Shown in pieces: positions 25,888-40,000 of a stretch of DNA of 40,000 nt (within the stretch, counting starts at the first letter, position 1; each line of letters begins with the position of its first letter). The translations under genes were made by a program, and so were the position numbers. A model generated the notes under the pieces. The model was given only the letters and a program-made list of their open reading frames with translations, was not told the DNA's origin and searched no databases. This DNA comes from an uncultured Candidatus Bathyarchaeia archaeon (GTDB lineage Archaea; Thermoproteota; Bathyarchaeia; Bathyarchaeales; Bathycorpusculaceae): positions 6,700 to 46,699 of the forward strand of contig CAYSWL010000006.1 of NCBI GenBank assembly GCA_964434745.1. Direction: 5' to 3'.

Positions 25888-26928
25888 GTGGCTAAACTCT
25901 TTTTTTTAATTAGTGGCGAATTCGAAAGCCTATCATTTTCTGAACTTAAGGCTATTTTTGAAGCTGAAAATTATTCTTATGAAATCACAGAAAAACTTGA
26001 TCAGATAGTACGGCTACAAGCAGACCCTGGAAGTGTTAAACAAATTCTACGAAGAAGTGCGTATACGCGTGTATGTGCGCAAGAACTGTTTTGTTGTGAT
26101 GCAAATGACCAATCAATAGTTGATGCTGCGAACAGCACAGGCTTTCAACATATCTTAGAGAAAGGAGTATCTTTTGAGGTTCGCATACGTCGAATTAAAG
26201 AGTACAATAGTAAAGAGGATACTATGCGGCTAGAACGTCAACTTGGTACACTTATCTTACAAAATGCGCCGCATGCAAAAGTGAATTTGAGTAGACCAGA
26301 CTTATCTTTTTTTGGTGTTCTTACTAATAGTAAGCTCGTATTTGGTATAAAGCTTGGTGAAATTATACCTAAACCGTTTGTTGAACGTCGAGCGCGAAAA
26401 AAGCCCTACTTTCATCCATCAGCTATGAATGCAAAGTTGGCGCGTTGTATGATTAACTTGGCTCATGCTCAAACAGACACAGTCATACTAGATCCGTTTG
26501 TAGGAACAGGAAGCACTATTATTGAGGCAACACTTATCGGTTGTAGAGCAATTGGCATAGATATCATCCATAAAATGGCTAATGGTGCATTGAAAAATAT
26601 TCGTCACTTTGGCTTAAACCCATATGGAGTTGTTTTAGCAGATGCAAGAATCCTGCCATTGACGAAAATTGACTGTTTGGTAACTGATCCTCCCTATGGT
26701 AAAAGTGCAACCACTATGAAGAGTGGTACTAAAGCAATTATCGAAGGCGTCTTAGCTTCGGCTTATCCGCTTTTAGGCAGGGGACAACGAATTTGTATGG
26801 CAGCACCTAAAACATTAGATATTCGAAAAATAGGCGAACAATATGGGTATAAACATTTAGAGTCACATTTTGCCTATGTCCATCGTACATTGACGCGGGA
26901 AATCGCCGTCTTCGAAAAACTGGAGTAA
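25888..26928 (+). CDS. THUMP-domain tRNA (guanine-N2) methyltransferase, Trm11/TrmG10 family
   Basis: 346 aa with a GTG start. A THUMP-like N-terminal half is followed by class I MTase motifs DPFVGTGS and DPPYG. Confidence 0.72.
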   Translation: MAKLFFLISGEFESLSFSELKAIFEAENYSYEITEKLDQIVRLQADPGSVKQILRRSAYTRVCAQELFCCDANDQSIVDAANSTGFQHILEKGVSFEVRIRRIKEYNSKEDTMRLERQLGTLILQNAPHAKVNLSRPDLSFFGVLTNSKLVFGIKLGEIIPKPFVERRARKKPYFHPSAMNAKLARCMINLAHAQTDTVILDPFVGTGSTIIEATLIGCRAIGIDIIHKMANGALKNIRHFGLNPYGVVLADARILPLTKIDCLVTDPPYGKSATTMKSGTKAIIEGVLASAYPLLGRGQRICMAAPKTLDIRKIGEQYGYKHLESHFAYVHRTLTREIAVFEKLE

Positions 26929-26935
26929 AATATAG

Positions 26936-27856
26936 ATGAGCATACGTTTAATATTTCTAGGTACAGGTGCGGCCGTGCCTACTATTGAACGCAGTTTACC
27001 AGCAGTAATTTTTAGCAGAGGTAAAGAGCAAATAATGTTTGACTGTGGGGAAGGTGTTCAACGCCAAATTATGAAAGCCAAAACAGGTCTACATAAACCG
27101 CTAAAAATTCTTATAACACATATGCACGGTGATCATGTGCTTGGTCTGCCAGGACTGCTTCAGACAATGGCACTTATGGATCGTAGAAAACCAGTTGACA
27201 TCTATGGACCGGAAGGGATAGCACAATTTATAACGTGCCTACGAGAAACACTTCAATTCAATCTAACGTATCAAGTTAACGTCCATGAAATCATTAATTC
27301 AGGGTTAATCTGCAATGAACTAGAATATGTAATTGAAGCTCAACACAATAATCATGCTGTTAATGGTTTTTGTTACGCCGTTGTTGAAAAGCCACGTCCG
27401 GGAAGGTTTAATCCATCTAGAGCCCGTGAACTTGGAATCCCGGAAGGATTAATATGGAGTAAACTTCAACAGGGACATGAATATACATTACCTAGCGGCC
27501 AAATTGTGAAACCTTCAGATGTTTCAGGACCAGTTAGAAAAGGCAGAAAAATTGTCTATACAGGAGATACTAAACCCTTTGATGAATTCGCTCAGTTTGC
27601 TGCCAACGCAGACATTATTATCCATGAAGCTACTTTTGATGATGAACTTTTTGAGAAAGCATCTCTTGACGGACATTCAACGCCTAGCCAAGCAGCTATG
27701 CAAGCAAAAGCGGCTAATGCTAAGCAGCTCTTGCTCACACACATTAGTGCACGATATACTGATACCTCATTGCTCTTACTTCAAGCTAAAAAAATTTTTC
27801 CCAATACAATCGTAGCAACAGATTTTTTTGAGATTGAACTACCTTTAAGCAAATAA
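26936..27856 (+). CDS. rnz: ribonuclease Z (tRNA 3' endonuclease)
   Basis: 306 aa with FLGTGAAVPT, the THMHGDHVLGLPGLL histidine motif and a C-terminal THISARY block. Confidence 0.88.
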   Translation: MSIRLIFLGTGAAVPTIERSLPAVIFSRGKEQIMFDCGEGVQRQIMKAKTGLHKPLKILITHMHGDHVLGLPGLLQTMALMDRRKPVDIYGPEGIAQFITCLRETLQFNLTYQVNVHEIINSGLICNELEYVIEAQHNNHAVNGFCYAVVEKPRPGRFNPSRARELGIPEGLIWSKLQQGHEYTLPSGQIVKPSDVSGPVRKGRKIVYTGDTKPFDEFAQFAANADIIIHEATFDDELFEKASLDGHSTPSQAAMQAKAANAKQLLLTHISARYTDTSLLLLQAKKIFPNTIVATDFFEIELPLSK

Positions 27857-28636
27857 CCGATTTAATATTTCTATACTCTCAGTTATATGGTCACTAGATT
27901 CTATTACTAATTTACCGTCATAACCAATTTTTTTGAGTGTCTCGGCAAACTTAGAATAGTTAATATTACCATGACCTATTCCGAAATGATTGTCGACTTC
28001 ACCAAAATTATCACTAACGTGAATATGAACTATTTTTTGAGGAACCTTTTCTAGAAACATTTCTGTCAGATTTTCTAAATGTGCATGTGCTATGTCAAAC
28101 ACTATTCCAATATCCAAGCCTGATTCGGAATAGAAACGCAGAAATTCTTCAGGGGTACTCATCAAAAACCAGTATTTCCCAGGAAGGTTTTCGACTGCAA
28201 CATTTAGACCATGTGAATTGGCAATTTCGGTAAGTTGTTTTATGCTTTCAATATTTTGTTTCCAGTCAGCATTAGGGTAGAAGCTGCCGATGCCGGTTTT
28301 CATTCCTGGATGCAATACCCAAGTTCTTGCTTCAAGATCTGATGAGTAGTTAATTGACTGGGTTAAACGTTTCATTGAAGCTTTAAGCATTATTTCTGTA
28401 GGTGATGCAATATTTATATCAGCAAAAGGCGCATGCACTGTATATTCTAAGTCGTATAATTTGCCTATCTCACGAAGTTTTGCTACACGCTTCTTATCTA
28501 GTATGTGCCAACCATCATCTACGATTTCAATATATTTCGTTCCTATGTTGGATAAACGCTTGACCATTTCTGTAAATGGTTCGCCAAGACAGTGAAGCAT
28601 TGATAAGCTAACTTTAGGAGCAGACATAGTATTCAA
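27845..28636 (-). CDS. sugar phosphate isomerase/epimerase (xylose-isomerase-like TIM barrel)
   Basis: 263 aa with HAPF, VLHPG, ENL and HIHVSDN blocks typical of the AP-endonuclease-2/xylose-isomerase-like fold. Confidence 0.7.
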   Translation of the reverse strand: MNTMSAPKVSLSMLHCLGEPFTEMVKRLSNIGTKYIEIVDDGWHILDKKRVAKLREIGKLYDLEYTVHAPFADINIASPTEIMLKASMKRLTQSINYSSDLEARTWVLHPGMKTGIGSFYPNADWKQNIESIKQLTEIANSHGLNVAVENLPGKYWFLMSTPEEFLRFYSESGLDIGIVFDIAHAHLENLTEMFLEKVPQKIVHIHVSDNFGEVDNHFGIGHGNINYSKFAETLKKIGYDGKLVIESSDHITESIEILNRLFA

Positions 28637-28947
28637 TCCTGATTAATGAAACCTGTATAAATCATTCAGCGAGATTTATATTTTAAATCGTTCAGGTTAG
28701 TGTTTGCACATGTTTTTTTGGCATATTCTATAAATCTTCAAGCACAAACTGCAAGTATTGATTTTATTTAAATCCAATATGTGCAGAATACTTAACGTTG
28801 ATTGTTTACTTCTGATTAAGTCTTTATAGGAGTCTCTTAGTTCAATTGAAATTTATCCACTATTACAGTTGGAATTAATAAAAAGATTTTTTATGTGAAA
28901 ATTAGAAAAAGAGATTATCTTGTTTTTGGATGGTGAATTTATTTATC

Positions 28948-29276
28948 CATTAATTTTTTTATCATTTGCTCCTCTGCAGGTTGGGAATAAGCCTGTTTTC
29001 CATGGCAAAGTGACTATTTAAGCCTTAATTTGGGGCTATTTTTGTGGGGAAAGCTGTTTTTGGGCAGATTTTAAACAGTTTGTAACGTGAGCCCGCATGG
29101 CCGATAACGCCATTGCATGTATCAAACTTAAGCCTATGGGCATATGCACCCGGGCATACCGCCGAAGTGTTTTTGGCATGCATCCAAACATGCACACATA
29201 CACATAACAAGAAAGTACACTAAAACGTGCAAAATCCATGGAAAAAAGCCAAAAAATGCACCTATGCAACCCAAAA
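28948..29276. repeat. left terminal inverted repeat of the casposon
   Basis: 28948..29260 is the reverse complement of 37981..38293 with a single mismatch (28978 A versus G) by manual alignment. About 16 further bases match with decay. Confidence 0.9.
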
Positions 29277-29464
29277 AAGACCCTAAATGTGCCCAATTAC
29301 ATCTAACCAAATGAGATAGCCACTATATCCATATCTTAGGTGTAAGGCTTTGGCAGGGTTATAGGATATGCACAGTATTGATAAATATCTAACTGAAGGT
29401 TCAAATTTGGCTACCCTCATCAAGGTAACTTCAAGTCAAAATCAAAAAAAGAAAAAGAGGCGTG

Positions 29465-30550
29465 TTATTTTTTCCGCTTCTGCACTGCCATTATGCATAC
29501 GGAAGCGGCTACTATGATTGCTGCTGCTAACGCGATTATCAATGCATTTGTTGGGGTGCTTGCGTTATTTGCTGGTTGTGGCGAACCTATCGGCGCTGCT
29601 GCATTAGATGGAGTGCCATAGTGTGATGCCCAGTTGACTCCTGCAACTTCTCCCGTATCAGCCCATATGGCAACTTGAAGTTCAGTGATTCCTGCTGGAG
29701 ATTCTTTATCAAGCCCAAGAGATATGCCCCAAGCAGGATATAATGCATTGTTTCTTGGCTGCATCGTCAGTTCAGTGAGTATTGCATTTTCAGCTTTAGC
29801 CAAAATAAAGCCTGATATTGTTGCATTATTGTAGGTGATGGAATAGTTTTGTGCAGCGTTTTTGGCAATCTCTATAGCTTTTGTTTGGTCTATGTTAACA
29901 TCGAAGCTGCCTATCGGTTGGCGGTCCCAGAAGTCAGTAAACTTTACAAGACGGCCGTTGCTAAAGTCTAAAGCAACTGCATTGTATGTATTGTTTATGC
30001 CCTCAGGTGCTCTTGCCCAAGTAATTGATTGTCTGCTTTCCGTATCACTATTAGTTACTTCTAGTCGTGCTTCGCCAATTTGTGCTTTAGCAGATTCAGA
30101 TATGCCGCGAGTATTGATCGTGTCTCTCATGCTTTGCAGATATGAAGCATTTGAATAGCTCGTATACCTGTCAAGGGCATTTATTGCTTGGTCTTTAGTA
30201 GCTACATCGTTTTGTGTATATGCTGGTGGATTAGCTGATAATGAAAGTATTGAACAGGACCGTATGATATTGTCTTTAACTAGGCAAACTACTGAAACTG
30301 CGTCATCAGTGGAATTTAAGATGTAATTCTCAAGTTTATAGTCAGCTACCGCCCCAGTACTTTTCAATGTTATGCTATAGCGCGCTGTGTCTATTCCCAT
30401 CACATCTTTTAGGAAAGCCACAGCATTAGCGCTGCCATCAGTAACGTTTTGTAGCTCTGAGTGCACAGTGGGCACCTGCACAGCAGCAATAGATATAGCT
30501 AGCACAGCAAGGGCAATTATTGCAAAGTTTTTTACATTAAATTTGCTCAT
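29465..30550 (-). CDS. membrane-anchored surface protein with PepSY-like repeats (casposon cargo)
   Basis: Start taken at the ATG at 30550, preceded by AGGAG. It has a signal peptide MSKFNVKNFAIIALAVLAISIAAVQ. Its last module (DQTKAIEIAKNAAQNY...LQVAIWADTGEVAGV) fits the PepSY pattern, and a C-terminal TM helix ends in KRKK. Confidence 0.6.
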   Translation of the reverse strand: MSKFNVKNFAIIALAVLAISIAAVQVPTVHSELQNVTDGSANAVAFLKDVMGIDTARYSITLKSTGAVADYKLENYILNSTDDAVSVVCLVKDNIIRSCSILSLSANPPAYTQNDVATKDQAINALDRYTSYSNASYLQSMRDTINTRGISESAKAQIGEARLEVTNSDTESRQSITWARAPEGINNTYNAVALDFSNGRLVKFTDFWDRQPIGSFDVNIDQTKAIEIAKNAAQNYSITYNNATISGFILAKAENAILTELTMQPRNNALYPAWGISLGLDKESPAGITELQVAIWADTGEVAGVNWASHYGTPSNAAAPIGSPQPANNASTPTNALIIALAAAIIVAASVCIMAVQKRKK

Positions 30551-30563
30551 ATACAAGTCTCCT

Positions 30564-32177
30564 TTAAACATGTGGCAGATATACGGTCCCATCTCCATAA
30601 ACTCGTATTTTACTAGTTATCCAACTTGGGGGTTGTCCGTCGGCACCGTTCCACCATACTGTGTTTCCGTTGTCGCCGTTGTAGCTTGGGAAGGTATTGA
30701 AGCTAGAGTATCCTGATGCTTGTGATGCGGCGTCAATAGCTTGGTTTATGGTAAGCCCAACTGTTACAGCGTAGTGATAGAAGAACACTAGCCAGTGTTT
30801 GTATAGTTGGTTTGTGTTAGAAGGCGAGATGTATTGGCAAAGCATTGGAGAGGCACTGTTAAACGAAATAAAGCAATAACCGCTCCAATCATTGCCAGTG
30901 TATGCATTTGTGTTTGTAATTGCGCCATGTGTCCAGCAGTAAGGCATACCGTAAGGTGGATATGGAGAATTTGGTCCGCCTAGTGCTTCTCCGTTGCGAC
31001 ATACCCATAAGAAAACAAAGTGATGCCTGCGATTAACTATGTTGTCGTAAACGTCCTCATCCCATACCTTACCTACATCTCCTACTGGCGTACCAGCACC
31101 GTTTTCAGCAAATCCGTAGTGAGTGACGCCCTCTCTGGTCTCCCAACCGTTATGCCCTATGTAGAGAAATGTTGACTCAGGATAATCTGTGTCATCTTCA
31201 TAAATTCCACCGAGCATGTTTCCAACGGTTGAGTATGATCGACCAGCCTGCAGGTAGTTTTCTAAGCGGCCATACTCGAGTGTATTTGAAAACATTGAAA
31301 ATATGTCATCAGCAGCATCTATAACAGCCAGATTCGCAGTGCTAGTCGCAGGATTGCCAGATGCATACACTTCAATATCGTCAACGCAAACTGAATTGGA
31401 CCCTGCATCAGTTTGGTAGGCTATTCCGAATCCTGCAACGAGTGTATTTTGTGTCATGGTGCGAGTTTGCGTAGCTACAGGCGAACCGTCAATCAACAAC
31501 TGTGCCTGATTAGTTGTCAAGTCGCGTATTAGCTCAACTTCATACCAGTCGTCTTTGCTTGGAATTGAAGTGCTCTGAACCAAGTTTAAGCTGCCACCTA
31601 CAAAGGTCTCTAGTGTCCATCTATACGTGCCAGAGACTTTAGTTATTGATGCAACAACTTGGTTTTCCCATGAATTGCCCTGCAGATACATTATTTCGAG
31701 ACGTGATGAACTGTAAGGAATGTTAAGGTCCGTGAAATATACATGCGCAATGGCTCTAGCTTCTGCACTTGTAGGAAGATACTGATATATCTTATTTGAT
31801 GCTCCAGCAGTCGATGCTGTTGCTCTAGCGCTATAATATTCACTGGTATAATAATCATCTTCAAGGAAAGGTCCATCTACGCACCATTTATCTAGATTAT
31901 CTATTTCATCATAAATCACTTTATCGAGGGGTTCTTGATCGTTACCTGCATCTGAAGCATGTATTAAGCTAGCATAGCCCCAGCCGTTATTCCATCCGTA
32001 TGGGGTTATTGCTGCATTTGCTATTGGCAGTGATGGCAATGAAACTACCAAAGACATCGAAATCAAAAGCATACTAAACATAATTACATATTTTTTCTTT
32101 TTCTCTCTCCATTTTGCTAATTTGTTCTCTTTAAATCCATCAATTAGGACTAGGCGGTGACACGCCCTCCAAAGCAA
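30564..32177 (-). CDS. secreted protein with LamG/concanavalin-like domain and C-terminal gingipain (C25)-like putative cysteine peptidase domain (casposon cargo)
   Basis: It has a K-rich n-region, a hydrophobic core and an ANA-A cleavage-like site. The central region (YEVELIRD...LLIDGSPV...VCVDDIEVY) looks like a LamG jelly roll. The C-terminal YIGHNGWE...HHFVFLWVCRNGEA...VYGDGTVYLP resembles the His/Cys dyad context and terminal GDP block of clan CD C25 peptidases. The start is uncertain (TTG at 32177 or ATG at 32081). Confidence 0.55.
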   Translation of the reverse strand: MLWRACHRLVLIDGFKENKLAKWREKKKKYVIMFSMLLISMSLVVSLPSLPIANAAITPYGWNNGWGYASLIHASDAGNDQEPLDKVIYDEIDNLDKWCVDGPFLEDDYYTSEYYSARATASTAGASNKIYQYLPTSAEARAIAHVYFTDLNIPYSSSRLEIMYLQGNSWENQVVASITKVSGTYRWTLETFVGGSLNLVQSTSIPSKDDWYEVELIRDLTTNQAQLLIDGSPVATQTRTMTQNTLVAGFGIAYQTDAGSNSVCVDDIEVYASGNPATSTANLAVIDAADDIFSMFSNTLEYGRLENYLQAGRSYSTVGNMLGGIYEDDTDYPESTFLYIGHNGWETREGVTHYGFAENGAGTPVGDVGKVWDEDVYDNIVNRRHHFVFLWVCRNGEALGGPNSPYPPYGMPYCWTHGAITNTNAYTGNDWSGYCFISFNSASPMLCQYISPSNTNQLYKHWLVFFYHYAVTVGLTINQAIDAASQASGYSSFNTFPSYNGDNGNTVWWNGADGQPPSWITSKIRVYGDGTVYLPHV

Positions 32178-32465
32178 CCAGCCTTGGTATTCTTGGTTTA
32201 ATTATTTAGTACTCCTTAAAGCTAACAGTTTATGGGATAATCAAATAAACACAAAAGAACAATACAATGTGCTACTACAGACATAACTTTTGGAAGTTCC
32301 TTTGCAACACACTTTATCACTAAAAGCTTAAATAAAGACACCAGATGAAAGAATGCATCTGATTTGAAAATAGCGTGGAAACAATCTTAATCATTATCTG
32401 AAAGGCAAATACACACCGTCAGTTATCAAATCCGAATACTCCATAACTAGCGAGTTATAATTTAA

Positions 32466-33314
32466 CTAATTATAATAAAGTGTTTGACGCCTTTTGAGAA
32501 TATGTACTGTTAACCCACTTATCAACACTAATACGACAATAATTGCAGCAATTAGCATATGTGAACCTTCAAACGGTGTACTATCATCTGCTGGAGTTAA
32601 CGTAGGATGAGATGGCAAAGGTGTTAAGCTTGTCGATATTGAGGGCAATAAAGACGAAGATAAATTGGGGGCAGTCGTTGGGCTTGGAGTTGCTATTGGG
32701 CTGGGGCTGTTTTGCGCATGTTGGCTGTATTGGTAGTTTAGGTGCATGTTTCCGTAGGTGTCATTTGTCGGCACATTTGGCATATGCCCATCATATCGAA
32801 ACTCTCCACGAGTATAGAGCGCATCAAAAAACCTAGTAGCGTTAATCTGGGCTTTAGAAACTATCTCAGAATTTAACTCATAAAATATGCGCTCACCATC
32901 AAAAGATAAACTAATAACGTTAGGCATTCGGCTTAGATTAAAAGTGTCGCTATGCACTATGCCTGATTTTCTAGAAGAAAATAAGACCGTAAAATTGCCT
33001 TTTTCGGCAGAGATTTGAAATCCTGAATTGTCTGGTTCATGGGAGTAATTTCCTGAAACTATGAAAGGCGGGTCGCTTTGGTAATAGAAGCAAAACAGCA
33101 TAAAGAAGTCTCGGTCAGTAGGATAGGCAACTGAGCTAATATCTATGGTAACTGAGGTTACATTTGAGCTTAAGCTGTAAGTTTTTAACTCGTTATAAAA
33201 GAACTGCTCAATGCTAAGCGAAGAAGGGTTAACAACCGCACCAGCAATAGGCATAGCAAGCAACAGTGCAATTAGACAAACAGAAGCTATAGCTAAAGTA
33301 ACAGATTTATCCAT
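32466..33314 (-). CDS. membrane-anchored surface protein with Pro/Ser/Thr-rich stalk (casposon cargo)
   Basis: It has a signal peptide MDKSVTLAIASVCLIALLLAMPIAGA, many N-x-S/T sequons, a PSPIATPSPTTAPNLSSSLLPSISTSLTPLPSHPTLTP linker and a C-terminal TM helix followed by KRRQ. An alternative TTG start lies at 33326. Confidence 0.6.
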   Translation of the reverse strand: MDKSVTLAIASVCLIALLLAMPIAGAVVNPSSLSIEQFFYNELKTYSLSSNVTSVTIDISSVAYPTDRDFFMLFCFYYQSDPPFIVSGNYSHEPDNSGFQISAEKGNFTVLFSSRKSGIVHSDTFNLSRMPNVISLSFDGERIFYELNSEIVSKAQINATRFFDALYTRGEFRYDGHMPNVPTNDTYGNMHLNYQYSQHAQNSPSPIATPSPTTAPNLSSSLLPSISTSLTPLPSHPTLTPADDSTPFEGSHMLIAAIIVVLVLISGLTVHILKRRQTLYYN

Positions 33315-33430
33315 CCTGCTCACCAATCACTAAAGACACTAACAAAGCTACTTTTTATATGTACCTAGAAAACAACCTGTTCTGGCAAAAGAACGCCAAA
33401 AAGCAGCTTAACAGGTTAGTATGCATTACC

Positions 33431-33487
33431 TTGTCAGAGTGATCCACCTACTATAAAAGTCGCCCTGAAAGCAGAGTTACCTTTCAA
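33431..33487 (+). repeat. internal copy of a ~58-bp sequence also found just outside the right TIR
   Basis: ttgtcagagtgatccacct...ccctgaaagcagagttacctttca aligns by hand with 38311..38368 at about 46 of 58 positions, with one 1-nt indel. Confidence 0.7.
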
Positions 33488-33490
33488 GGC
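33462..33490 (-). terminator. stem-loop immediately downstream of polB (candidate terminator)
   Basis: A 10-bp stem (GCCCTGAAAG / CTTTCAAGGC, one mismatch) with a 9-nt loop. On the minus strand it is followed by ACTTTTAT, and it begins 8 nt after the polB stop. Confidence 0.35.
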
Positions 33491-33497
33491 GCCTAAA

Positions 33498-35390
33498 TTA
33501 TAGTAAGGTTGTATTTTGGCATTGCTGAGCTTTAATGTACGGGTCGCTTAGTTTTTGCCAATCTACATTCAGGGTTCTTTTTTGAAGCTCCATAACGCGC
33601 GGCTGCTTGTGCTGACGTATGGCTTCGCCAATTTTTACCATGTGCCGCGCTTCGTAGGTGAACTTATTTTCTGCAATCATTTCCAGCAGGGTATGAACAT
33701 TGCCTTGAAAACCATGTAATGCAAACTTGATAATGGCTTCGTCTTTGCCTACTTTCATTTTTGGCATTTCTTTAGCTAAGTAAGCGGGCAAATTGCCACA
33801 CTGCAAAATTTCATTTTGCCACTTAGGCGAAAACATCACATACACTTTTGGTCTTAACAGCAAAAGTAAGCCTTCAACTTCTTTTTTAAGCGCACCTAAC
33901 TCGGTACCTGTAGGAACACTCATTGTGGTCTTAAACGAATCCGTAGCGCAGTCAATGCCACTGTAGCGATGTAAATCTCTATGTAACATGGCACGGCCTT
34001 GGCTGGTAATCCATGCGCCCACATGAGGCAAATAAAGTCCGCCTGCACGATACCATTTTTCAATTTTAGCAACCCTGTGATTGGGTAAAACCTTAAAATC
34101 TTCAAGATTTTCACTTTCAGGGTCTAAAAGAGCCTGATAGGTTTTCCCATACAAGCTGTTAAGTGCTAATTTGGCTTGGGTATTTAGCGGCGAATTTTTA
34201 GGATACTTTTCTTTTTGCGCATAGAAGTGTTCAACGTAGGGTTTGAAGGGATTTTTCGATTCAGCATGCGGCACCCAAATATAGCCAAAAACTTTTGAGA
34301 GCTCCAACTCGTTGCAGCTAAGCGCCTCTTTTAACTCGCAGCTGCTTATAGGCACGTTAGAAATTTGCTCATCATTAGCGTAGTCCATTTTGCTTGTGCT
34401 TTTGATAATTATTGGATATGGGCATTGCTTTACATAACCGCTAATATAATAGAAACCTTCATGATCAGGGTCAAACCCATCAACAGGTTTCCATTCGCCT
34501 TTAGTTAAGCCTGGCAAATTAGCCATGCTGTATGGATAAAAGCTGTTGTAATCGTACATGGAAACGTTAGGAATTGGGATAGGGGTGTTAACGAAAACCT
34601 CCGCCCTGCCTCCATGTATGGTTGACTCGGCAAGTTTTCGTATGTGCTCTGGAATTTGTGGGATATTTTCTGTTAAGAAGCATTTTCTAAAAATTTTGCT
34701 GGCCAAATGAGGCGCAGAAACAGACAAAGTAACATCGTACTGCCAGTGCATATTAAGGATATATTTGGCTAACTCGTATTCGGCTTTGCTTTCATCAAAG
34801 CAGTAGCGATACAGCTCAGCCCATTCAGTTTTAGTTCTAGGCCTTTTTCCCTGCATAACACAGCTTGGGGGATTGCGTTTTTTGTATTTTAAATCCAAAG
34901 CTCTGCTTAGATCGTAGAGTTTTCCTCTAAGAAAGTTAGCACTATCGACCACTTTGATGGTGGCGTTGTTTTTAAGTGAAATTTGCGCAAACCAGCTTTT
35001 ATTAGTAAATAGCTTAATTTCTGCTATGGATTCTCGCGTTTCTGGGTCAGTCAGGTAGCGGAAAGTAGAGTTTTTGCGCAAAAAGAGCTCGTGTTCTACT
35101 TGGGTTAAGACTGCAGGTAAGTCAAAGGATAAGTTATGGCAAAAAAGTATGTGCGTATGCTTGTTGCTGTTACAATGCTTTAACAGGTAGCTAATGAACC
35201 TGTCCAGTACGGTATTTTTATCAACCTTAACGGTGCTAATGTGGTTGCCGTCGTTAAAGATTAGAAGATATGGCTCGCCGTAGTCTGTTTCAGTGTCGAA
35301 GGTGAAAAGCTTTATTCTTTGTGGAAAGCCGCGTTTTAAGGGTCTTATGCCATCGCGCAGGTATACAGGTAAAGCTACGTGTTTGTCCAT
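33498..35390 (-). CDS. polB: family B DNA polymerase (protein-primed type inferred)
   Basis: 630 aa with ExoI FDTETD, ExoII HNLSFDLPAV, a YCFDE ExoIII-like block, Pol motif A YDYNSFYPYSM, motif B KLALNSLYGK and motif C IDCATDSF. The compact size and casposon context suggest the pPolB type. Confidence 0.85.
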   Translation of the reverse strand: MDKHVALPVYLRDGIRPLKRGFPQRIKLFTFDTETDYGEPYLLIFNDGNHISTVKVDKNTVLDRFISYLLKHCNSNKHTHILFCHNLSFDLPAVLTQVEHELFLRKNSTFRYLTDPETRESIAEIKLFTNKSWFAQISLKNNATIKVVDSANFLRGKLYDLSRALDLKYKKRNPPSCVMQGKRPRTKTEWAELYRYCFDESKAEYELAKYILNMHWQYDVTLSVSAPHLASKIFRKCFLTENIPQIPEHIRKLAESTIHGGRAEVFVNTPIPIPNVSMYDYNSFYPYSMANLPGLTKGEWKPVDGFDPDHEGFYYISGYVKQCPYPIIIKSTSKMDYANDEQISNVPISSCELKEALSCNELELSKVFGYIWVPHAESKNPFKPYVEHFYAQKEKYPKNSPLNTQAKLALNSLYGKTYQALLDPESENLEDFKVLPNHRVAKIEKWYRAGGLYLPHVGAWITSQGRAMLHRDLHRYSGIDCATDSFKTTMSVPTGTELGALKKEVEGLLLLLRPKVYVMFSPKWQNEILQCGNLPAYLAKEMPKMKVGKDEAIIKFALHGFQGNVHTLLEMIAENKFTYEARHMVKIGEAIRQHKQPRVMELQKRTLNVDWQKLSDPYIKAQQCQNTTLL

Positions 35391-35396
35391 CTTTTT

Positions 35397-36080
35397 TTAT
35401 TCTCCTGTAGACGTAGATTTGCTTGGGGCTTTGGTTTTGAAGGCTTCAACTACTGGGGTGCCTGTTTGCATAAAAAAGTGCAGGGCAATGATGTCTATAA
35501 CTTCGATGTCTTTGTCTTGTAAGCTTAAGCTAAGCATATCTGAGATGTTTTCTGTGAAGAAGCGATAGATTTCTCTAAAGCTTACACCCTCTTCACGGTA
35601 ACTGTACTGGATAGGATATAAGAAAAATAGCTCTGATTCACGCCCTACATAATAAACAGTTACTGAGCTAAATCGGCCCTTTGGATTGGCCTGAATATCG
35701 CTGGCTACGCGGGTTTTTGGGTTTACGTATCGAGTGGGCGGGTAAGTGATGTTTTGGAAATGATAATGCTCATCGAGCTTGTCTATGTAGCGTCGGGTTG
35801 GAACCCATTCGTTTGGCTTTTTTAGCTTGGGTTTTGCTTTGATGCGCTTTTTAGGCCCGCGCCTGCGCTTACCCTTTAAGCCATATTGCGCTACGCGCCT
35901 GTTGACGGTGCGCGGCGAGACTTTAAAGTAAAATGCTATCCATTTGGTGGCTTTGCCTTGCCTAAGAAACTTTGCTAAAAGAGCCCTTGGTATATCGGTT
36001 TTTGTTGTTTTTTCTTTTGATTTTGTGTTTTTCTGCTCTGTCACAATTTTTCGCCTTAGTGGCATAATTAGCCAAAACAT
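35397..36080 (-). CDS. HTH-containing basic protein encoded directly upstream of polB (candidate regulator or terminal protein)
   Basis: 227 aa. The N-terminal KATKWIAFYFKVSPRTVNRRVAQYGL is a resolvase/IS-type HTH, followed by the highly basic KGKRRRGPKKRIKAKPKLKK. Its stop lies 6 nt before the polB start. Confidence 0.6.
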   Translation of the reverse strand: MFWLIMPLRRKIVTEQKNTKSKEKTTKTDIPRALLAKFLRQGKATKWIAFYFKVSPRTVNRRVAQYGLKGKRRRGPKKRIKAKPKLKKPNEWVPTRRYIDKLDEHYHFQNITYPPTRYVNPKTRVASDIQANPKGRFSSVTVYYVGRESELFFLYPIQYSYREEGVSFREIYRFFTENISDMLSLSLQDKDIEVIDIIALHFFMQTGTPVVEAFKTKAPSKSTSTGE

Positions 36081-36094
36081 TATTATGCCTTAAA

Positions 36095-36137
36095 GTCATA
36101 TGGGCATATGACATAAAACGCGTTTGGGGCATATGAC
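36095..36137. promoter_or_regulatory. operator-like repeats in the casposon divergent promoter: GTCATATG-GG-CATATGAC dyad plus a second GGGCATATGAC
   Basis: A perfect 8-bp inverted repeat lies at 36095..36112 and a direct repeat of GGGCATATGAC at 36102..36112 and 36127..36137. The whole is flanked symmetrically by CCTTAAAG (36088..36095) and CTTTAAGG (36146..36153). Confidence 0.5.
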
Positions 36138-36160
36138 CTAAACGGCTTTAAGGTGATACT

Positions 36161-36844
36161 TTGCCCAAAAAGATTGAAAACCCGCTAAGACAAGGTCTAC
36201 CATCACGAATCTACTACTACTCATTTGCGAAGCCCATAAACGGGAATAGTATAGCCAGAGCAGTCTACAAACCAAAAGGTAGACCCGAAACCGCAAAAAT
36301 ATATCCAACAGCCAAAAAGATGGTTGAGGGGGGCTTACTAACTGTAGCTGACAAAAAGTATCAATCAAGGCCAGAAAAACTCGTTGAAGAAATCAAAAAA
36401 GAGCTAACAGATAAGAAAATAACGCTAACCGATAGCGATAAGAAACGTGTATTGAAGCTCTTGCAGTGCAGGTTCTTTAAAGAAATCATAGCCTCCGAAA
36501 TCGAAAAAGAGCCAAAAAACCGCAAGCCTCAAGATATTGACGCAGCCCAGCAAATAAGCAGTATTCTTGCCATTACCTGCATTCCGATATATCAGCAGTT
36601 TAGGCAAGAAGAAAAGGAAATAGGAGCAATGTATGCGCATGAAAAAACCAAATTCATCGGCTATATAGACCAAGAGCCATTCAAAGAAACTACAACACAA
36701 GACCCTATAACGGAGTTTTTGTTTTATCTTCAGCCCAGGCTTGCTTCTAAGCTGGTGAGGCTGCTGCCAGCAGATTTGCCCCAAGTGTGGGATTCTTTTG
36801 AAGAAGTGTTAAAGAAAATTAGCACAGAGGCAAATAAGCCATGA
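36161..36844 (+). CDS. casposon hypothetical protein, possible N-terminal winged-helix domain, translationally coupled to cas1
   Basis: 227 aa with a TTG start. The N-terminal ~60 aa (SIARAVYKPKGRPETAKIYPTAKKMVEGGLL) resemble a wHTH. Its stop overlaps the cas1 start (ATGA). Confidence 0.5.
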   Translation: MPKKIENPLRQGLPSRIYYYSFAKPINGNSIARAVYKPKGRPETAKIYPTAKKMVEGGLLTVADKKYQSRPEKLVEEIKKELTDKKITLTDSDKKRVLKLLQCRFFKEIIASEIEKEPKNRKPQDIDAAQQISSILAITCIPIYQQFRQEEKEIGAMYAHEKTKFIGYIDQEPFKETTTQDPITEFLFYLQPRLASKLVRLLPADLPQVWDSFEEVLKKISTEANKP

Positions 36845-37887
36845 GCGTAGGTAAATTAATCGTTAAAGATTTTGGGCAAACTATCGGTGTTGATAGGGAT
36901 AATTTTGTAGTAAAATCTGATGGACAGGTTAAGAGCAAAATTCCATTCTACAAAGTAAATGAGATAGTTGTTGCCAGCAAAAATGCAATAACAACTGATG
37001 CTTTGCTTTGGGCAAGCATATACAATGTAGATGTGCTATTTGCCATGCACAATGGCAAGCCCTTAGCGTTCTTAAACTCAATGAAAGACAAAGCAAACGT
37101 CGAAGTCAGGTTAAACCAATTTCGCGCCTACGAAAGCTCCAAAGGATTAGAAATTGCTAAGTCTATTTTGCTTAAGAAAATTGACAACGAAGAAGCACTG
37201 CTAAAACACCTTGGGCTCAAATGCTACTCTGAATGCACTAAGCTGCCTTCGATAGAAACGATAGCAAACTTGAAAGCAGAAAAAATGACCCAGCAACTTA
37301 GGCTTAAATTACAAGTTGCTGAAGAAGCCTTTACCCGCCACTTTTACAAAGAAATCTTTCCTTTGTTCCCAAAATGGCTACAGGTAAGCAACCGCAAGGC
37401 AAGAAACGCCACCGAACCAATGAACAACCTTCTAAACATTAGCTACGAATTGCTGGAATGGAAAATCATCAAAGCGGCAGTAAAGTCAAAATTGGAGCCT
37501 GACCTTGGTTTCTTACATAGTCTCCAAAAGGGTAAGCCTTCATTGGTTTGTGATTTAACTGAACCTTTCAGACCTTATGTTATTAATTTCTTGTTGGGGC
37601 ATGCAAAGAAGCTTAAGCAAAAAGATTTTCGCAAAGCCTTCGTTAAAGATAGGTACCCAAGATACTTTCTCACACATGAAGCTACTTGGCAGCTAATTGA
37701 GAGCATTAACTTGCAGTTGTTTGAAGCTTATGTTCCACTGCAAAGAAACCGCAAGCATGGCAGGCGCATGCAATTTGAAACCTTCCTCGATGAATTTGTA
37801 AGCGAAGTAGCGCAATATATCAACAACACTAAACCGCTAATGCCAACAACTACTTTTCCCCAATATGCATTCTTTAGCACACGCTAA
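36841..37887 (+). CDS. cas1: Cas1 integrase (casposase)
   Basis: 348 aa with Cas1 hallmark blocks: AEEAFTRHFY (Glu), EPMNNLLNISYELL and GFLHSLQKGKPSLVCDLTEPFRP (His and Asp). No cas2, cas4 or CRISPR array is adjacent, and the gene ends ~80 bp from the right TIR. Confidence 0.9.
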   Translation: MSVGKLIVKDFGQTIGVDRDNFVVKSDGQVKSKIPFYKVNEIVVASKNAITTDALLWASIYNVDVLFAMHNGKPLAFLNSMKDKANVEVRLNQFRAYESSKGLEIAKSILLKKIDNEEALLKHLGLKCYSECTKLPSIETIANLKAEKMTQQLRLKLQVAEEAFTRHFYKEIFPLFPKWLQVSNRKARNATEPMNNLLNISYELLEWKIIKAAVKSKLEPDLGFLHSLQKGKPSLVCDLTEPFRPYVINFLLGHAKKLKQKDFRKAFVKDRYPRYFLTHEATWQLIESINLQLFEAYVPLQRNRKHGRRMQFETFLDEFVSEVAQYINNTKPLMPTTTFPQYAFFSTR

Positions 37888-37964
37888 CCCTCCGCCAATT
37901 TGGCTGCAGGCAATTTATGGGCATGCACACGCTAATGCATTTTTGATGTTGCAAATGAATGCAT

Positions 37965-38293
37965 ATTTGGGTTGCCTGGGTGCATTTTTTGGCTTTTTTC
38001 CATGGATTTTGCACGTTTTAGTGTACTTTCTTGTTATGTGTATGTGTGCATGTTTGGATGCATGCCAAAAACACTTCGGCGGTATGCCCGGGTGCATATG
38101 CCCATAGGCTTAAGTTTGATACATGCAATGGCGTTATCGGCCATGCGGGCTCACGTTACAAACTGTTTAAAATCTGCCCAAAAACAGCTTTCCCCACAAA
38201 AATAGCCCCAAATTAAGGCTTAAATAGTCACTTTGCCATGGAAAACAGGCTTATTCCCAACCCGCAGAGGAGCAAATGATAAAAAAATTAATG
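37965..38293. repeat. right terminal inverted repeat of the casposon
   Basis: Reverse complement of 28948..29276. The outer 313 bp are identical except for one position. Confidence 0.9.
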
Positions 38294-38310
38294 TCTAAAT
38301 TAAATAGGCT

Positions 38311-38368
38311 TTGCCAGAGTGACCCACCTGCCTCAATAAGTTACCCTGAAAGCAGAATTACCTCTCAG
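38311..38368 (+). repeat. flanking copy of the ~58-bp sequence repeated inside the casposon
   Basis: ttgccagagtgacccacct...ccctgaaagcagaattacctctcag begins 18 nt outside the right TIR and aligns with 33431..33487. Confidence 0.7.
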
Positions 38369-38771
38369 ACATGCGCTAAACATGTGCCCTTTAAAAAGGA
38401 AAGGGCGTCTTGGCGCCTATCTTCCAAGCCAATGACAAATTGGATAGGCAAGAGTCAGTTTGACAAGCAGCCTGCTAAAAAAATCACCACGAAAAAACAC
38501 TAAAACGAAAAACTCCTTTTCACTGTTCTTTTTTGAGAACGGCCGTTCCAAAAAGTAGCACAAGCATACTAATATATAGTAGGAGTTACGCATTTGGGTT
38601 GTGTTGATTGCAGAAATGTGTATATTTGTGTATTGAATAGGGGTGTTTTTTGCTGTTTATCAGTTAATTTTTAGCTCAATCATAATTAGATTATATGTCA
38701 ACTGCGTAACTCCTATATAGTATTAAATCAACCCTTAGACTATTAACAGGTAGAAGCCTGGGTGCGAACCT

Positions 38772-39347
38772 ATGAGCAAACAGAAATATATGATAATTCG
38801 TGCAGCCCTTATTGTTATAGCATTATCTTCCTTGATAGTTGCAGCAATATGCTTTATGTTCTCGCCTGCATATTTTTCACCTAATGATGTTAAACTTATT
38901 AATCCACATTACTTGGTTGGTTCTTCTGGCAATGAATCTAGAATTTTCTTGGTATCGGCAACGCCAAGTTATGGTACCTATCCTTTTCAAGATGCACACG
39001 GTTTACCTGGCAAACCTGACATCCACACTGGTGATCCATGCTTTATAATTAATGTTACTATTAGAAATGATTATACGCCTCAAAATCCGCTACCGTACTA
39101 CCAAGGGAGTGTTAAAGAAGTAGCTTTTATCTTTTTGACGGCAAAGCTCTATGACAGCAACGGCACAATAATTGAGACAACAAACGTAACCCCGCCATAT
39201 CCTTCCCCTTCACAATTTGGTGCCCCTCTAACAAGCGTGCCGTATGGAGAAGAATACTCGTTTAACATGTATTTGGCGACTGCTAACCAAAATGTTGATC
39301 ATTTCAGCATCGAAATGCTTTATTTAGGTTCTATACCACCACCCTAA
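38772..39347 (+). CDS. N-terminally anchored extracellular protein, function unknown
   Basis: 191 aa with one N-terminal TM helix (IIRAALIVIALSSLIVAAICFMF) followed by a beta-rich domain carrying N-x-S/T sequons. Confidence 0.55.
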   Translation: MSKQKYMIIRAALIVIALSSLIVAAICFMFSPAYFSPNDVKLINPHYLVGSSGNESRIFLVSATPSYGTYPFQDAHGLPGKPDIHTGDPCFIINVTIRNDYTPQNPLPYYQGSVKEVAFIFLTAKLYDSNGTIIETTNVTPPYPSPSQFGAPLTSVPYGEEYSFNMYLATANQNVDHFSIEMLYLGSIPPP

Positions 39348-39772
39348 AGACCATTGACAGAATAACAAACAACAAGACTCAAGCAAATTTTAGAATAAGA
39401 GCCACACTACCTTCCTGTTTGAAGCTGAAATGAAGGGTTCTCCAAAGAAAACATATTCCAGAGTTTAATAATGCGCCTTCGCTCGTTTCATTTCTCTTTG
39501 ACATATTTAGTTTCCGATAGAAGCGAAATTGCTCACGGTTTACGTTCATTTACACATTTTTCTTTAGTCATGTTATTCGACGTTCTTTAAAGTAAAGTGT
39601 ATTTATGTTATACAATATAGCGAAAATAGTTTTAATAGCAAAATTTTAAAAGCAATTCAAAACAAACAGCAATTCTGTGTTCTGACAAGTCTTTAGCTAA
39701 AGTTGCAGAACATTCTCACCTACAAGTCCAACTGAAGGACAAGAAATTAAACGTTAAAAGGGAGGTGAAACA

Positions 39773-40000
39773 ATTGTTGATAAAAAGGTCAAGCTAATAG
39801 CAATTGCTTTACTTTCGCTTTTGCTTTTCCCAAGTTTAGTCGCTGCTGTAGCAACAAAATCAAATCAACCTCCAACTATGCCTTCGTTTGACCCCTTCAA
39901 AGCTTATTACCCTAGCAACAGAACTGAAATAATTGCAGCAAGAAATATAACTGATGCACAACTTAGACTGCCAAAGCTAGCACCTAACGGCACATTAATC
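39773..40000 (+). CDS. secreted protein, 3' end outside the window; start codon uncertain
   Basis: An open frame runs from the stop at 39755 to the window end and encodes KVKLIAIALLSLLLFPSLVAAVATKSNQPP..., a signal-peptide-like sequence. GGAGGTGA lies at 39761..39768. No ATG/GTG/TTG is available in frame near the RBS; ATT at 39773 is the only candidate. Confidence 0.35.
   Translation, partial: MVDKKVKLIAIALLSLLLFPSLVAAVATKSNQPPTMPSFDPFKAYYPSNRTEIIAARNITDAQLRLPKLAPNGTLI

Follow-up and report, generated by a model that had tools for sequence, protein, structure and literature searches.

Casposons are the proposed ancestors of the spacer-integration machinery of clustered regularly interspaced short palindromic repeat (CRISPR) systems. 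Reviews and methods papers up to 2023 recognize four casposon families, confine family 1 to Thaumarchaeota, and treat a family B DNA polymerase (PolB) as ubiquitous. Family 1 comprises NitAR1-C1 of Ca. Nitrosopumilus koreensis and its relatives (Krupovic et al. 2014, 2019; Wang et al. 2021), with three or four conserved uncharacterized genes (arCOG14992 and others) upstream of a protein-primed PolB (pPolB). The N. koreensis casposase has been shown experimentally to generate a 13-bp duplication of its target (PMC8464041). Several published casposons are without duplications (Table S1 of PMC4046053), casposon remnant copies are known in Methanolobus, and tandem insertions are known in Methanosarcina and Nitrosopumilus adriaticus. 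Here, we analyzed a 40,000-nt stretch of contig CAYSWL010000006.1 (the window, in which all coordinates are given) where an earlier note had proposed a complete casposon with a Cas1 and a PolB between long inverted termini, unlinked to CRISPR and foreign in composition. Our data support that proposal. We believe that the segment is an integrated casposon-type transposon of a family resident in Bathyarchaeia and outside casposon families 1 to 3, family 4 being absent from the comparison, and we put the probability of this reading at about 0.78.

The element is ~9.4 kb long and is delimited by terminal inverted repeats (TIRs). Without gaps, the two arms aligned at 28938-29275 and 37966-38303 (338 nt, 98% identity); with gaps, they aligned at 28937-29275 and 37966-38305 (340 columns, 98.2%), and there was no match beyond 28937 and 38305. 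The end that both arms share exactly, CATTAATTTTTTT... (CATTAATTTTTTTATCATTTGC), starts from 28948 on the left and from 38293 on the right. These are the ends that had been proposed, and they stand as the exact start of the identical end; the accompanying arm length of 313 bp does not, since the alignments together with the shared-end starts give arms of ~328 to 340 nt. In the left TIR (28937..29275, no strand), the terminus conserved in the family, a T-run followed by ATCATTTGCTCC, starts at 28954-28956, and an imperfect inverted extension makes up the outer 17 nt (28937-28953). In the right TIR (37966..38305, no strand), the conserved terminus finishes at 38285-38287. The terminus motif TTTTTATCATTTGCTCC matched the window twice, at both element ends and nowhere else, where 0.02 matches were expected. 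All seven credible genes between the TIRs are intact. The G+C content of the element is 41.1%, compared to 37.0% for the host DNA and a maximum of 38.9% among host windows of 9.4 kb. The contrast is clearer in G+C at third codon positions (GC3), which is 0.25 to 0.29 in host genes, 0.42 to 0.44 in the core genes of the element, and 0.35 to 0.37 in its cargo genes; the G+C-rich core noticed earlier by eye is thus real.

The casposase gene (36841-37887, plus strand) encodes a stand-alone Cas1 of 348 amino acids. The Cas1 domain model (PF01867, E=7.6e-51) spans residues 6 to 287, and the protein has no further Pfam domain and no helix-turn-helix (HTH) domain at its C terminus. It scored 169 bits against the general TIGR00287 model (cutoff, 71.7), while no Cas1 subtype model passed. 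Glu161, His226, Asp238, and Glu241 do not vary across the family alignment, which together with the model matches bears out the claim of an intact catalytic context. From the end of cas1, it is 78 bp to the right TIR's inner edge, close to the ~80 bp stated earlier, and ~400 to 420 bp to its tip. We found no CRISPR-like array in the window and no cas2 or cas4 among the window open reading frames (ORFs) examined by Pfam scan, in agreement with the earlier note. In ~45 bathyarchaeal loci, neither an array nor cas2, cas4, or an effector gene was present within 10 kb on either side.

To place the element among its relatives, we relied on protein and genome searches. Among 5.8 billion proteins, Cas1 recovered ~35 clusters at 55 to 61% identity and a second group at 30 to 37%. 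A genome scan with the single Cas1 sequence gave no match, but an alignment-based scan of 185,579 species genomes did find relatives, at 564 loci, the best 80 of which were considered. The best ~45 of the 564 are nearly all in metagenome-assembled genomes (MAGs) of Bathyarchaeia, with bacterial Cas1s next, and there were no thaumarchaeal genomes among the best 80. Every member of the ~60% group that was examined (L006, L097, L098/L099, and L100/L101) has the same module. In at least four relatives, polB, a gene for an HTH/C-domain protein, and small genes point one way, and a winged HTH (wHTH) gene followed by cas1 points the other. These relatives measure 6.2 to 9.2 kb, with TIRs of 166 to 352 nt. 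A terminus common to the family, T(5-7)ATCA[T/G]TT[A/G]CTCC, i.e., T(5-7)ATCAKTTRCTCC, is kept in four relatives, which ties the TIRs to this element family as opposed to a dispersed repeat family unrelated to the genes. Cas1, PolB, and TIRs travel together in five elements at different loci. The stretch between the polB 3′ end and the left TIR serves as a cargo slot: it is empty in L006 (6.2 kb) and L097 (6.5 kb) and holds other genes in L098 and L100. The cargo module recognized in the earlier note is present as a block in the window and missing from compact relatives.

Some of these relatives carry features of their own. The closest named relative, L006, lies in a Bathyarchaeia MAG, and its Cas1 is split into two ORFs of 153 and 171 amino acids (L006:9974-11040) despite TIRs that are 99.6% identical, suggesting a frameshift or sequencing error. 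L097 is in a MAG labeled Jordarchaeales and has archaeal flanks, with RadA/Rad51-like genes on either side of the element. L101 and L045 carry the bin labels Patescibacteria and Levybacteria, respectively; since both are short contigs with little beyond the element itself, they are likely mis-binned.

Target-site duplications were apparent in the relatives. Exact direct repeats abut the termini of L097 (TCATTAATTTAA), L098 (GTTAAAATTTAA), and L100 (GTTAAATTTTAAC), with the left copy outside the T-run and the right copy outside the A-run. They measure at least 12 to 13 nt from the T-run, or 14 to 17 nt as the longest shared strings. As target-site duplications should be, the repeats are AT-rich and near-palindromic, and because of this near-palindromic nature repeat finders had merged them into the TIRs. 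When the ends of 17 bathyarchaeal elements were scanned uniformly, 11 had exact direct repeats of 11 to 17 nt, a length that none of 300 shuffles matched; eight elements of a sister group described below had direct repeats of 11 to 15 nt. The targets resemble (G)ATTAAAATTTAAT(C). The duplications of the relatives are a signature of staggered Cas1 integration, and their length agrees with the 13 bp of N. koreensis.

The chromosomal setting points the same way. Housekeeping genes in the window encode Orc1/Cdc6, an archaeal CCA-adding enzyme, HMG-CoA reductase, TIM, tRNase Z, PRPP synthase, and glycogen-debranching enzymes; neither a tRNA gene nor an Rfam match turned up in the window. The CCA-adding enzyme has its best named relatives, at ~60% identity, in Bathyarchaeota/Bathyarchaeia MAGs, and judging from the labels of such relatives the host is probably a bathyarchaeon. 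On the left flank, the order AP_endonuc, tRNase Z, methyltransferase, PRPP synthase is kept in dozens of metagenomic relatives at 47 to 61% protein identity. In 16 of them (L104-L149), the position of the casposon is instead taken by a conserved set of three genes, for a 172-amino-acid CxxCxxCC protein, a 159-amino-acid methyltransferase, and a 108-amino-acid protein, the first lying ~90 to 530 bp ahead of AP_endonuc; all three are absent from the window and from L002. In ~25 related genomes, that side of AP_endonuc has no Cas1, no PolB, and none of the genes of the window right flank. The orthologous chromosomal site is empty in related genomes, and therefore PolB is not a resident host paralogue with orthologues at this locus in all relatives.

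We next consider where the Cas1 belongs. The reference set was the alignment of the 2014 casposon authors (PMC4046053). Cas1 from the window reached 60 to 66 bits with the family 1 and 2 casposases of this set, and its CRISPR subtypes gave no more than 46 bits; family 1 gave 60 to 64 bits, and the best single sequence, at 66 bits, was from family 2. Closer still were bacterial Cas1s whose neighbors are Cas2, effector genes, and arrays that reach 103 repeats. In a neighbor-joining tree of 105 sequences, the window Cas1 and its ~60% relatives formed a clade (100%) that was sister to a clade of bathyarchaeal stand-alone Cas1s at 30 to 36% identity, with joint support of 100%. This bathyarchaeal super-clade was monophyletic in 200 of 200 bootstraps and lay outside families 1 to 3, with a weak attachment (25%) to an array-linked clade. 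Over the columns in common with the trimmed references, a super-clade profile scored 177 bits against array-linked Cas1s, 138 against family 2, 123 against family 1, and 100 against family 3. Among solved structures, Cas1 of A. fulgidus (75 bits) and the M. mazei casposase (62 bits) were equidistant. By sequence, then, the Cas1 is not that of family 1, 2, or 3 (family 4 was absent from the tree), nor does it nest in a CRISPR clade, and its weakly supported deep position appears to lean to CRISPR-associated Cas1.

The polymerase gene (33498-35390, minus strand) encodes a compact family B DNA polymerase of 630 amino acids in the protein-primed (DNA_pol_B_2) class (PF03175, E=4.8e-19). Five family members share its Exo I-III, Pol A/B/C, and KxY motifs without variation, so the full motif set reported earlier was confirmed. 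PolB belongs to a large unannotated family, with 1,460 representatives at a threshold of E<=1e-3 and 152 at the stricter E<=1e-30. Its nearest annotated relatives are the “protein-primed DNA polymerase B” of the archaeal virus LCBv1 (24% identity over 82%), the one encoded by Muninn virus of Odinarchaeum, and polymerases from tectivirus-like phages, AP50 among them. PolB also matches two viral DNA-polymerase PHROGs. Six nucleotides upstream of polB lies the gene for a 227-amino-acid HTH/C-domain protein (35397..36080, minus strand), which begins with an HTH, continues through a basic linker, and closes with a conserved C-terminal domain of ~110 amino acids rich in invariant Tyr, Ser, and Thr residues. 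All PolB-bearing elements have it, invariably beside polB, and all polymerase-less ones lack it. This position and strict co-occurrence with PolB make the protein a candidate terminal (priming) protein.

With these data, we asked whether the element could be an ordinary family 1 member in a new host. The earlier note had seen a resemblance to thaumarchaeal family 1, and this holds for the class of the polymerase and for a Cas1 without an HTH domain: the PolB is alike at class level, and the 348-amino-acid stand-alone Cas1 is comparable to the 347-amino-acid N. koreensis casposase (PMC8464041). The gene set is compact in both (7.6 to 8.2 kb there, 6.2 to 9.4 kb here), with uncharacterized genes upstream of polB, sequence-specific targeting, tandem or remnant copies known, and relatives' duplications of at least 12 to 13 bp that match the functional 13-bp duplication of N. 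koreensis. Family 1 scores are also nearly the best among the 2014 references. The resemblance fails for the Cas1 lineage and the host. On shared columns, Cas1 is ~28% identical to family 1, compared to ~30% for array-linked type I Cas1s (177 versus 123 bits), and it never nests in family 1 in the tree but keeps its own clade in all 200 replicates. The best 80 Cas1 loci hold no thaumarchaeal genome, the hosts being Bathyarchaeia here and Nitrososphaeria in family 1. The TIRs, at 166 to 352 nt with a T-run and ATCAKTTRCTCC, differ from those of family 1 (~70 nt, range 68 to 71, with ...TTCTA), the target is an intergenic AT-rich near-palindrome as opposed to the 3′ end of ef-2, and a separate wHTH gene is coupled to cas1. 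Upstream of polB, a single gene is conserved in the bathyarchaeal family, that of the HTH/C-domain protein, while others vary. We consider family 1 membership improbable. Family 2 (Aciduliprofundum boonei and Methanosarcina mazei) shares the Cas1 integrase, TIRs, tandem arrays or remnants, and a duplication of ~14 bp, and its demonstrated activity in vitro and in vivo supports the mechanism inferred here. However, the polymerase of family 2 is PolB3-like and RNA-primed, its Cas1 is fused to an HTH, and it has HNH nucleases and targets tRNA genes, in contrast to the protein-primed-class polymerase and separate HTH protein of the present element.

Slightly less probable again than family 1 membership is a protein-primed virus or linear plasmid that has become integrated, with Cas1 serving as the integrase, and whose cargo encodes envelope or receptor-binding virion proteins. 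The nearest named polymerases do come from small archaeal viruses and tectivirus-like phages (24 to 28% identity over 39 to 82% for LCBv1 [OM716002], Muninn virus, and Bacillus phage AP50), long TIRs are typical of protein-primed linear genomes and serve as replication origins in those viruses and phages, one cargo protein has a lectin/receptor-binding-type fold, and all three look surface exposed. Yet L006 and L097 are wholly without cargo genes, other relatives hold different genes in the slot, no capsid or packaging gene matched in PHROGs or Pfam, integration here is through Cas1, and the GC3 of the cargo is unlike that of the core, suggesting separate acquisition. As for a remnant of a CRISPR adaptation module with repeats and PolB as unrelated neighbors, this is effectively refuted, although Cas1 passes the general CRISPR Cas1 model and its nearest non-bathyarchaeal relatives are in genuine Cas1-Cas2 loci with large arrays. 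The type I proteins (I-C/I-D/I-G-like; Desulforudis L056) are ~30% identical, score 177 bits, and have the same catalytic residues, but they sit beside cas2, effectors, and arrays of up to 103 repeats, whereas the window Cas1 sits in a TIR-bounded element. Against this remnant are the lack of an array, cas2, cas4, or effector gene in the window or the ~45 bathyarchaeal loci, a joint Cas1-PolB-TIR unit in five elements at different loci, and duplications that abut the TIR ends. Finally, the window copy might be an immobilized relic, fixed at one site and rearranged by repeat recombination, whatever its family once did. In favor of this are the missing canonical duplication, a single locus in all datasets with no strain-level empty site, a decayed element end and an insertion sequence (IS) alongside, and TIRs that run 17 nt past the family terminus. 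Against it are seven of seven genes intact, TIR arms 98% identical, intact catalytic residues, and a difference of 0.09% in the element versus 0.6 to 1.1% in the flank, which suggests recent spread or homogenization over long decay. We regard the relic as possible but doubtful.

Several results count against our reading of a separate bathyarchaeal family of casposon-type transposons. Among casposases, the tree covered families 1 to 3, with family 1 represented by a minority of its members. Its deep nodes had 22 to 25% support, so the deep position of Cas1 is weakly placed, and over 200 replicates the sister group of the super-clade included the array-linked clade and no casposases in ~59% and consisted of casposases only in 16%. 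PolB gave no hit to solved structures at E<=1, either as a single sequence or as a five-member profile, and the single-sequence AlphaFold model of the HTH/C-domain protein, with a predicted local distance difference test (pLDDT) score of 38, was unusable. Protein priming, the terminal-protein role, and the role of the wHTH protein are what we infer. We found no paper linking casposons to Bathyarchaeia in the searchable literature, which excludes most subscription journals, so that a prior description is possible, and one group mentions an unpublished wider casposon survey; the family is probably undescribed. At the window copy itself, the only direct repeat at the termini is the 6-nt palindrome ATTAAT (p=0.36), and there is no target-site duplication. 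The 13 nt outside its termini match as inverted sequence (11 of 13). No strain-level empty site was found, all contigs that reach a junction carrying a TIR, and the copies known to us include no second insertion locus.

These copies comprise an identical Cas1 protein on five other contigs and the flank genes on 11 more, from at least 10 datasets and at one locus throughout. Between datasets, the element DNA is 99.9 to 100% identical. A metagenome collection that does not include the relevant contigs gave 0 hits to the exact TIR. Between the window and L001, the element (29208-38305) differs by 0.09% and the adjoining host DNA (26137-29275) by 0.6 to 1.1%, which suggests that the element recently spread or was homogenized after the strains had diverged. 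The Cas1 end adjoins the flank with a 191-amino-acid gene in the window, L002, and L086 and the AP_endonuc flank in L001, L003, and L005, and TIR polymorphisms are spread differently between the arms from contig to contig. The two orientations could reflect recombination between the arms (flip-flop inversion plus gene conversion), independent insertions into a palindromic site, or an assembly ambiguity at the 340-nt repeat. The earlier suggestion that the element is intact and may be mobile thus divides: the ORFs are open and the TIRs near identical, but with a single locus, no strain-level empty site found, and no duplication at this copy, current mobility is no more than a possibility. The outer 17 nt of the TIRs were considered as a duplication and rejected, because they match in inverted (11 of 13) and not direct orientation; the termini of L021 show a similar inverted-only pattern.

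The right flank bears on this history. The DNA at 38306..40000 (no strand) is accessory, outside the conserved host neighborhood, and includes the 191-amino-acid gene (38772-39347). A 57-nt direct repeat has its inner copy below the polB stop codon and its outer copy 17 nt outside the right TIR; the repeat was not found in other family members. The inner copy forms a terminator-like hairpin with a U-run just 3′ of the polB stop (33431..33486, minus strand; z=-2.1). The outer copy (38311..38367, plus strand), decayed and without the fold, is 81% identical to the sequence downstream of polB and was probably left behind by a second copy of the element. Beyond the right end of the window are a 329-amino-acid gene, an IS transposase (DDE_Tnp_1), and then 72 nt of spacer resembling the sequence downstream of cas1. 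A third TIR copy, 88 to 92% identical and oriented like the right TIR, is at L002:12847-13133, ~3.7 kb right of the element, and also at the ends of L087 and L088. No decayed casposon genes were detectable in the right flank. The flank is probably the remnant of an older second copy in tandem, and the missing duplication could plausibly be explained by recombination among the three copies of the TIR. With no canonical duplication, both orientations, and a decayed second end alongside, the window copy has been rearranged since insertion.

Our model for how such an element would work is as follows. Cas1 would join the 3′ ends of the element (...GGAGCAAATGATAAAAAA-3′) to a target resembling (G)TTAAAATTTAA(T/C), the joins being staggered by ~13 bp, and gap repair after this staggered joining would yield the duplication. 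The polymerase would copy the element from its ends via protein priming, with the adjacent HTH/C-domain protein as the candidate primer. DNA recognition or regulation, a function of the fused HTH in family 2, would probably be given by the small wHTH protein translationally coupled to Cas1. This fast-evolving protein (227 amino acids; 36161..36844, plus strand; JGI label PadR) overlaps the cas1 start by 4 nt. Its relatives match wHTH Pfam families (HTH_24/HTH_5), and weak matches to the family, along with the wHTH-cas1 pairing, occur at the same position in sister elements. Between the two divergent gene sets lies an 80-bp control region (36081..36160, no strand) with GTCATATG/GGCATATGAC and a second GGGCATATGAC. 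In the whole window there are five occurrences of the 9-mer GGGCATATG, compared to 0.24 expected, and all five are within the element: in mirrored positions in the TIRs (29138 and 38095), in the cargo (32781), and in the divergent promoter, as GGGCATATGAC (36102 and 36127). We propose GGGCATATG as a candidate operator of the element HTH proteins, and the sites in both TIRs and the divergent promoter would be those used by the wHTH protein.

Variable cargo lies between the polB 3′ end and the left TIR; in this element, it encodes three proteins that are putatively secreted or anchored in the membrane, one of them with a lectin fold. Cargo gene 1 (29465..30598, minus strand; GC3 0.35) encodes 377 amino acids with an N-terminal hydrophobic segment, a C-terminal membrane anchor, and no family match. 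Cargo gene 2 (30564..32177, minus strand) encodes 537 amino acids (502 in some gene calls) with a signal-like N terminus, a concanavalin-A-like lectin beta-sandwich at residues ~120 to 270, and a C-terminal domain with invariant His342 and Cys393. Its model had a mean pLDDT of 63 and was confident for the concanavalin-A-like lectin/glucanase beta-sandwich alone; a clan-CD peptidase assignment for the C-terminal half was a guess that found no support. The protein collection holds 11 homologue clusters of this protein and no more. Cargo gene 3 (32466..33326, minus strand) encodes 286 amino acids with a signal-like N terminus, a Pro/Ser/Thr-rich linker, a C-terminal membrane anchor, and no family match. 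In all, signal-like N termini occur in three of three cargo proteins and C-terminal anchors in two of three, and none of the genes matched NCBIfam, PADLOC, or PHROGs. With a GC3 between those of host and core, the cargo suggests a separate origin, either older or host proximal.

The 30 to 36% Cas1 clade (L007-L050, Bathyarchaeia MAGs) also consists of TIR-bounded elements, of 3.9 to 12.6 kb; examples are L031:7467-11404, L018:6942-11119, L035:6815-11897, L046:5804-10382, and L038:5803-14530. A wHTH gene lies upstream of cas1 in these sister elements, which also encode recurrent unknown proteins of ~130 to 210 amino acids. Their termini are simple repeats (CCCAA, CCAAAC, TC, or TTC runs), and their exact 11- to 15-nt duplications are of a (G)ATTAAAATTTAAT(C)-like AT-rich target. 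No recognizable polymerase was found in the sister elements, which may be Cas1 transposons without a polymerase gene of their own. We tentatively suggest that the whole super-clade, i.e., the pPolB family and the polymerase-less elements with their similar AT-rich target of ~13 to 15 bp, could be a separate Cas1-transposon lineage, one that lies closer to CRISPR-associated Cas1 than classical casposases do, though we think this unlikely. If true, the super-clade would be the closest living relative of the transposon that founded CRISPR adaptation or, alternatively, a CRISPR Cas1 that escaped back into a transposon, and a Cas1 transposon could do without its own polymerase.

The known hosts of casposons are narrow, and a further family would carry their host range into Bathyarchaeia, among the most abundant archaea of sediments. 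The features of this family are a Cas1 nearer by sequence to array-linked Cas1s than to the known casposases, a separate wHTH partner, and a sharply defined palindromic target. It would offer new testable material on the evolution of Cas1 target choice and of the ruler-like ~13-bp stagger, as well as on the monophyly of casposases. The polymerase-less sister elements, if confirmed, would question the need for self-synthesis in such transposons.

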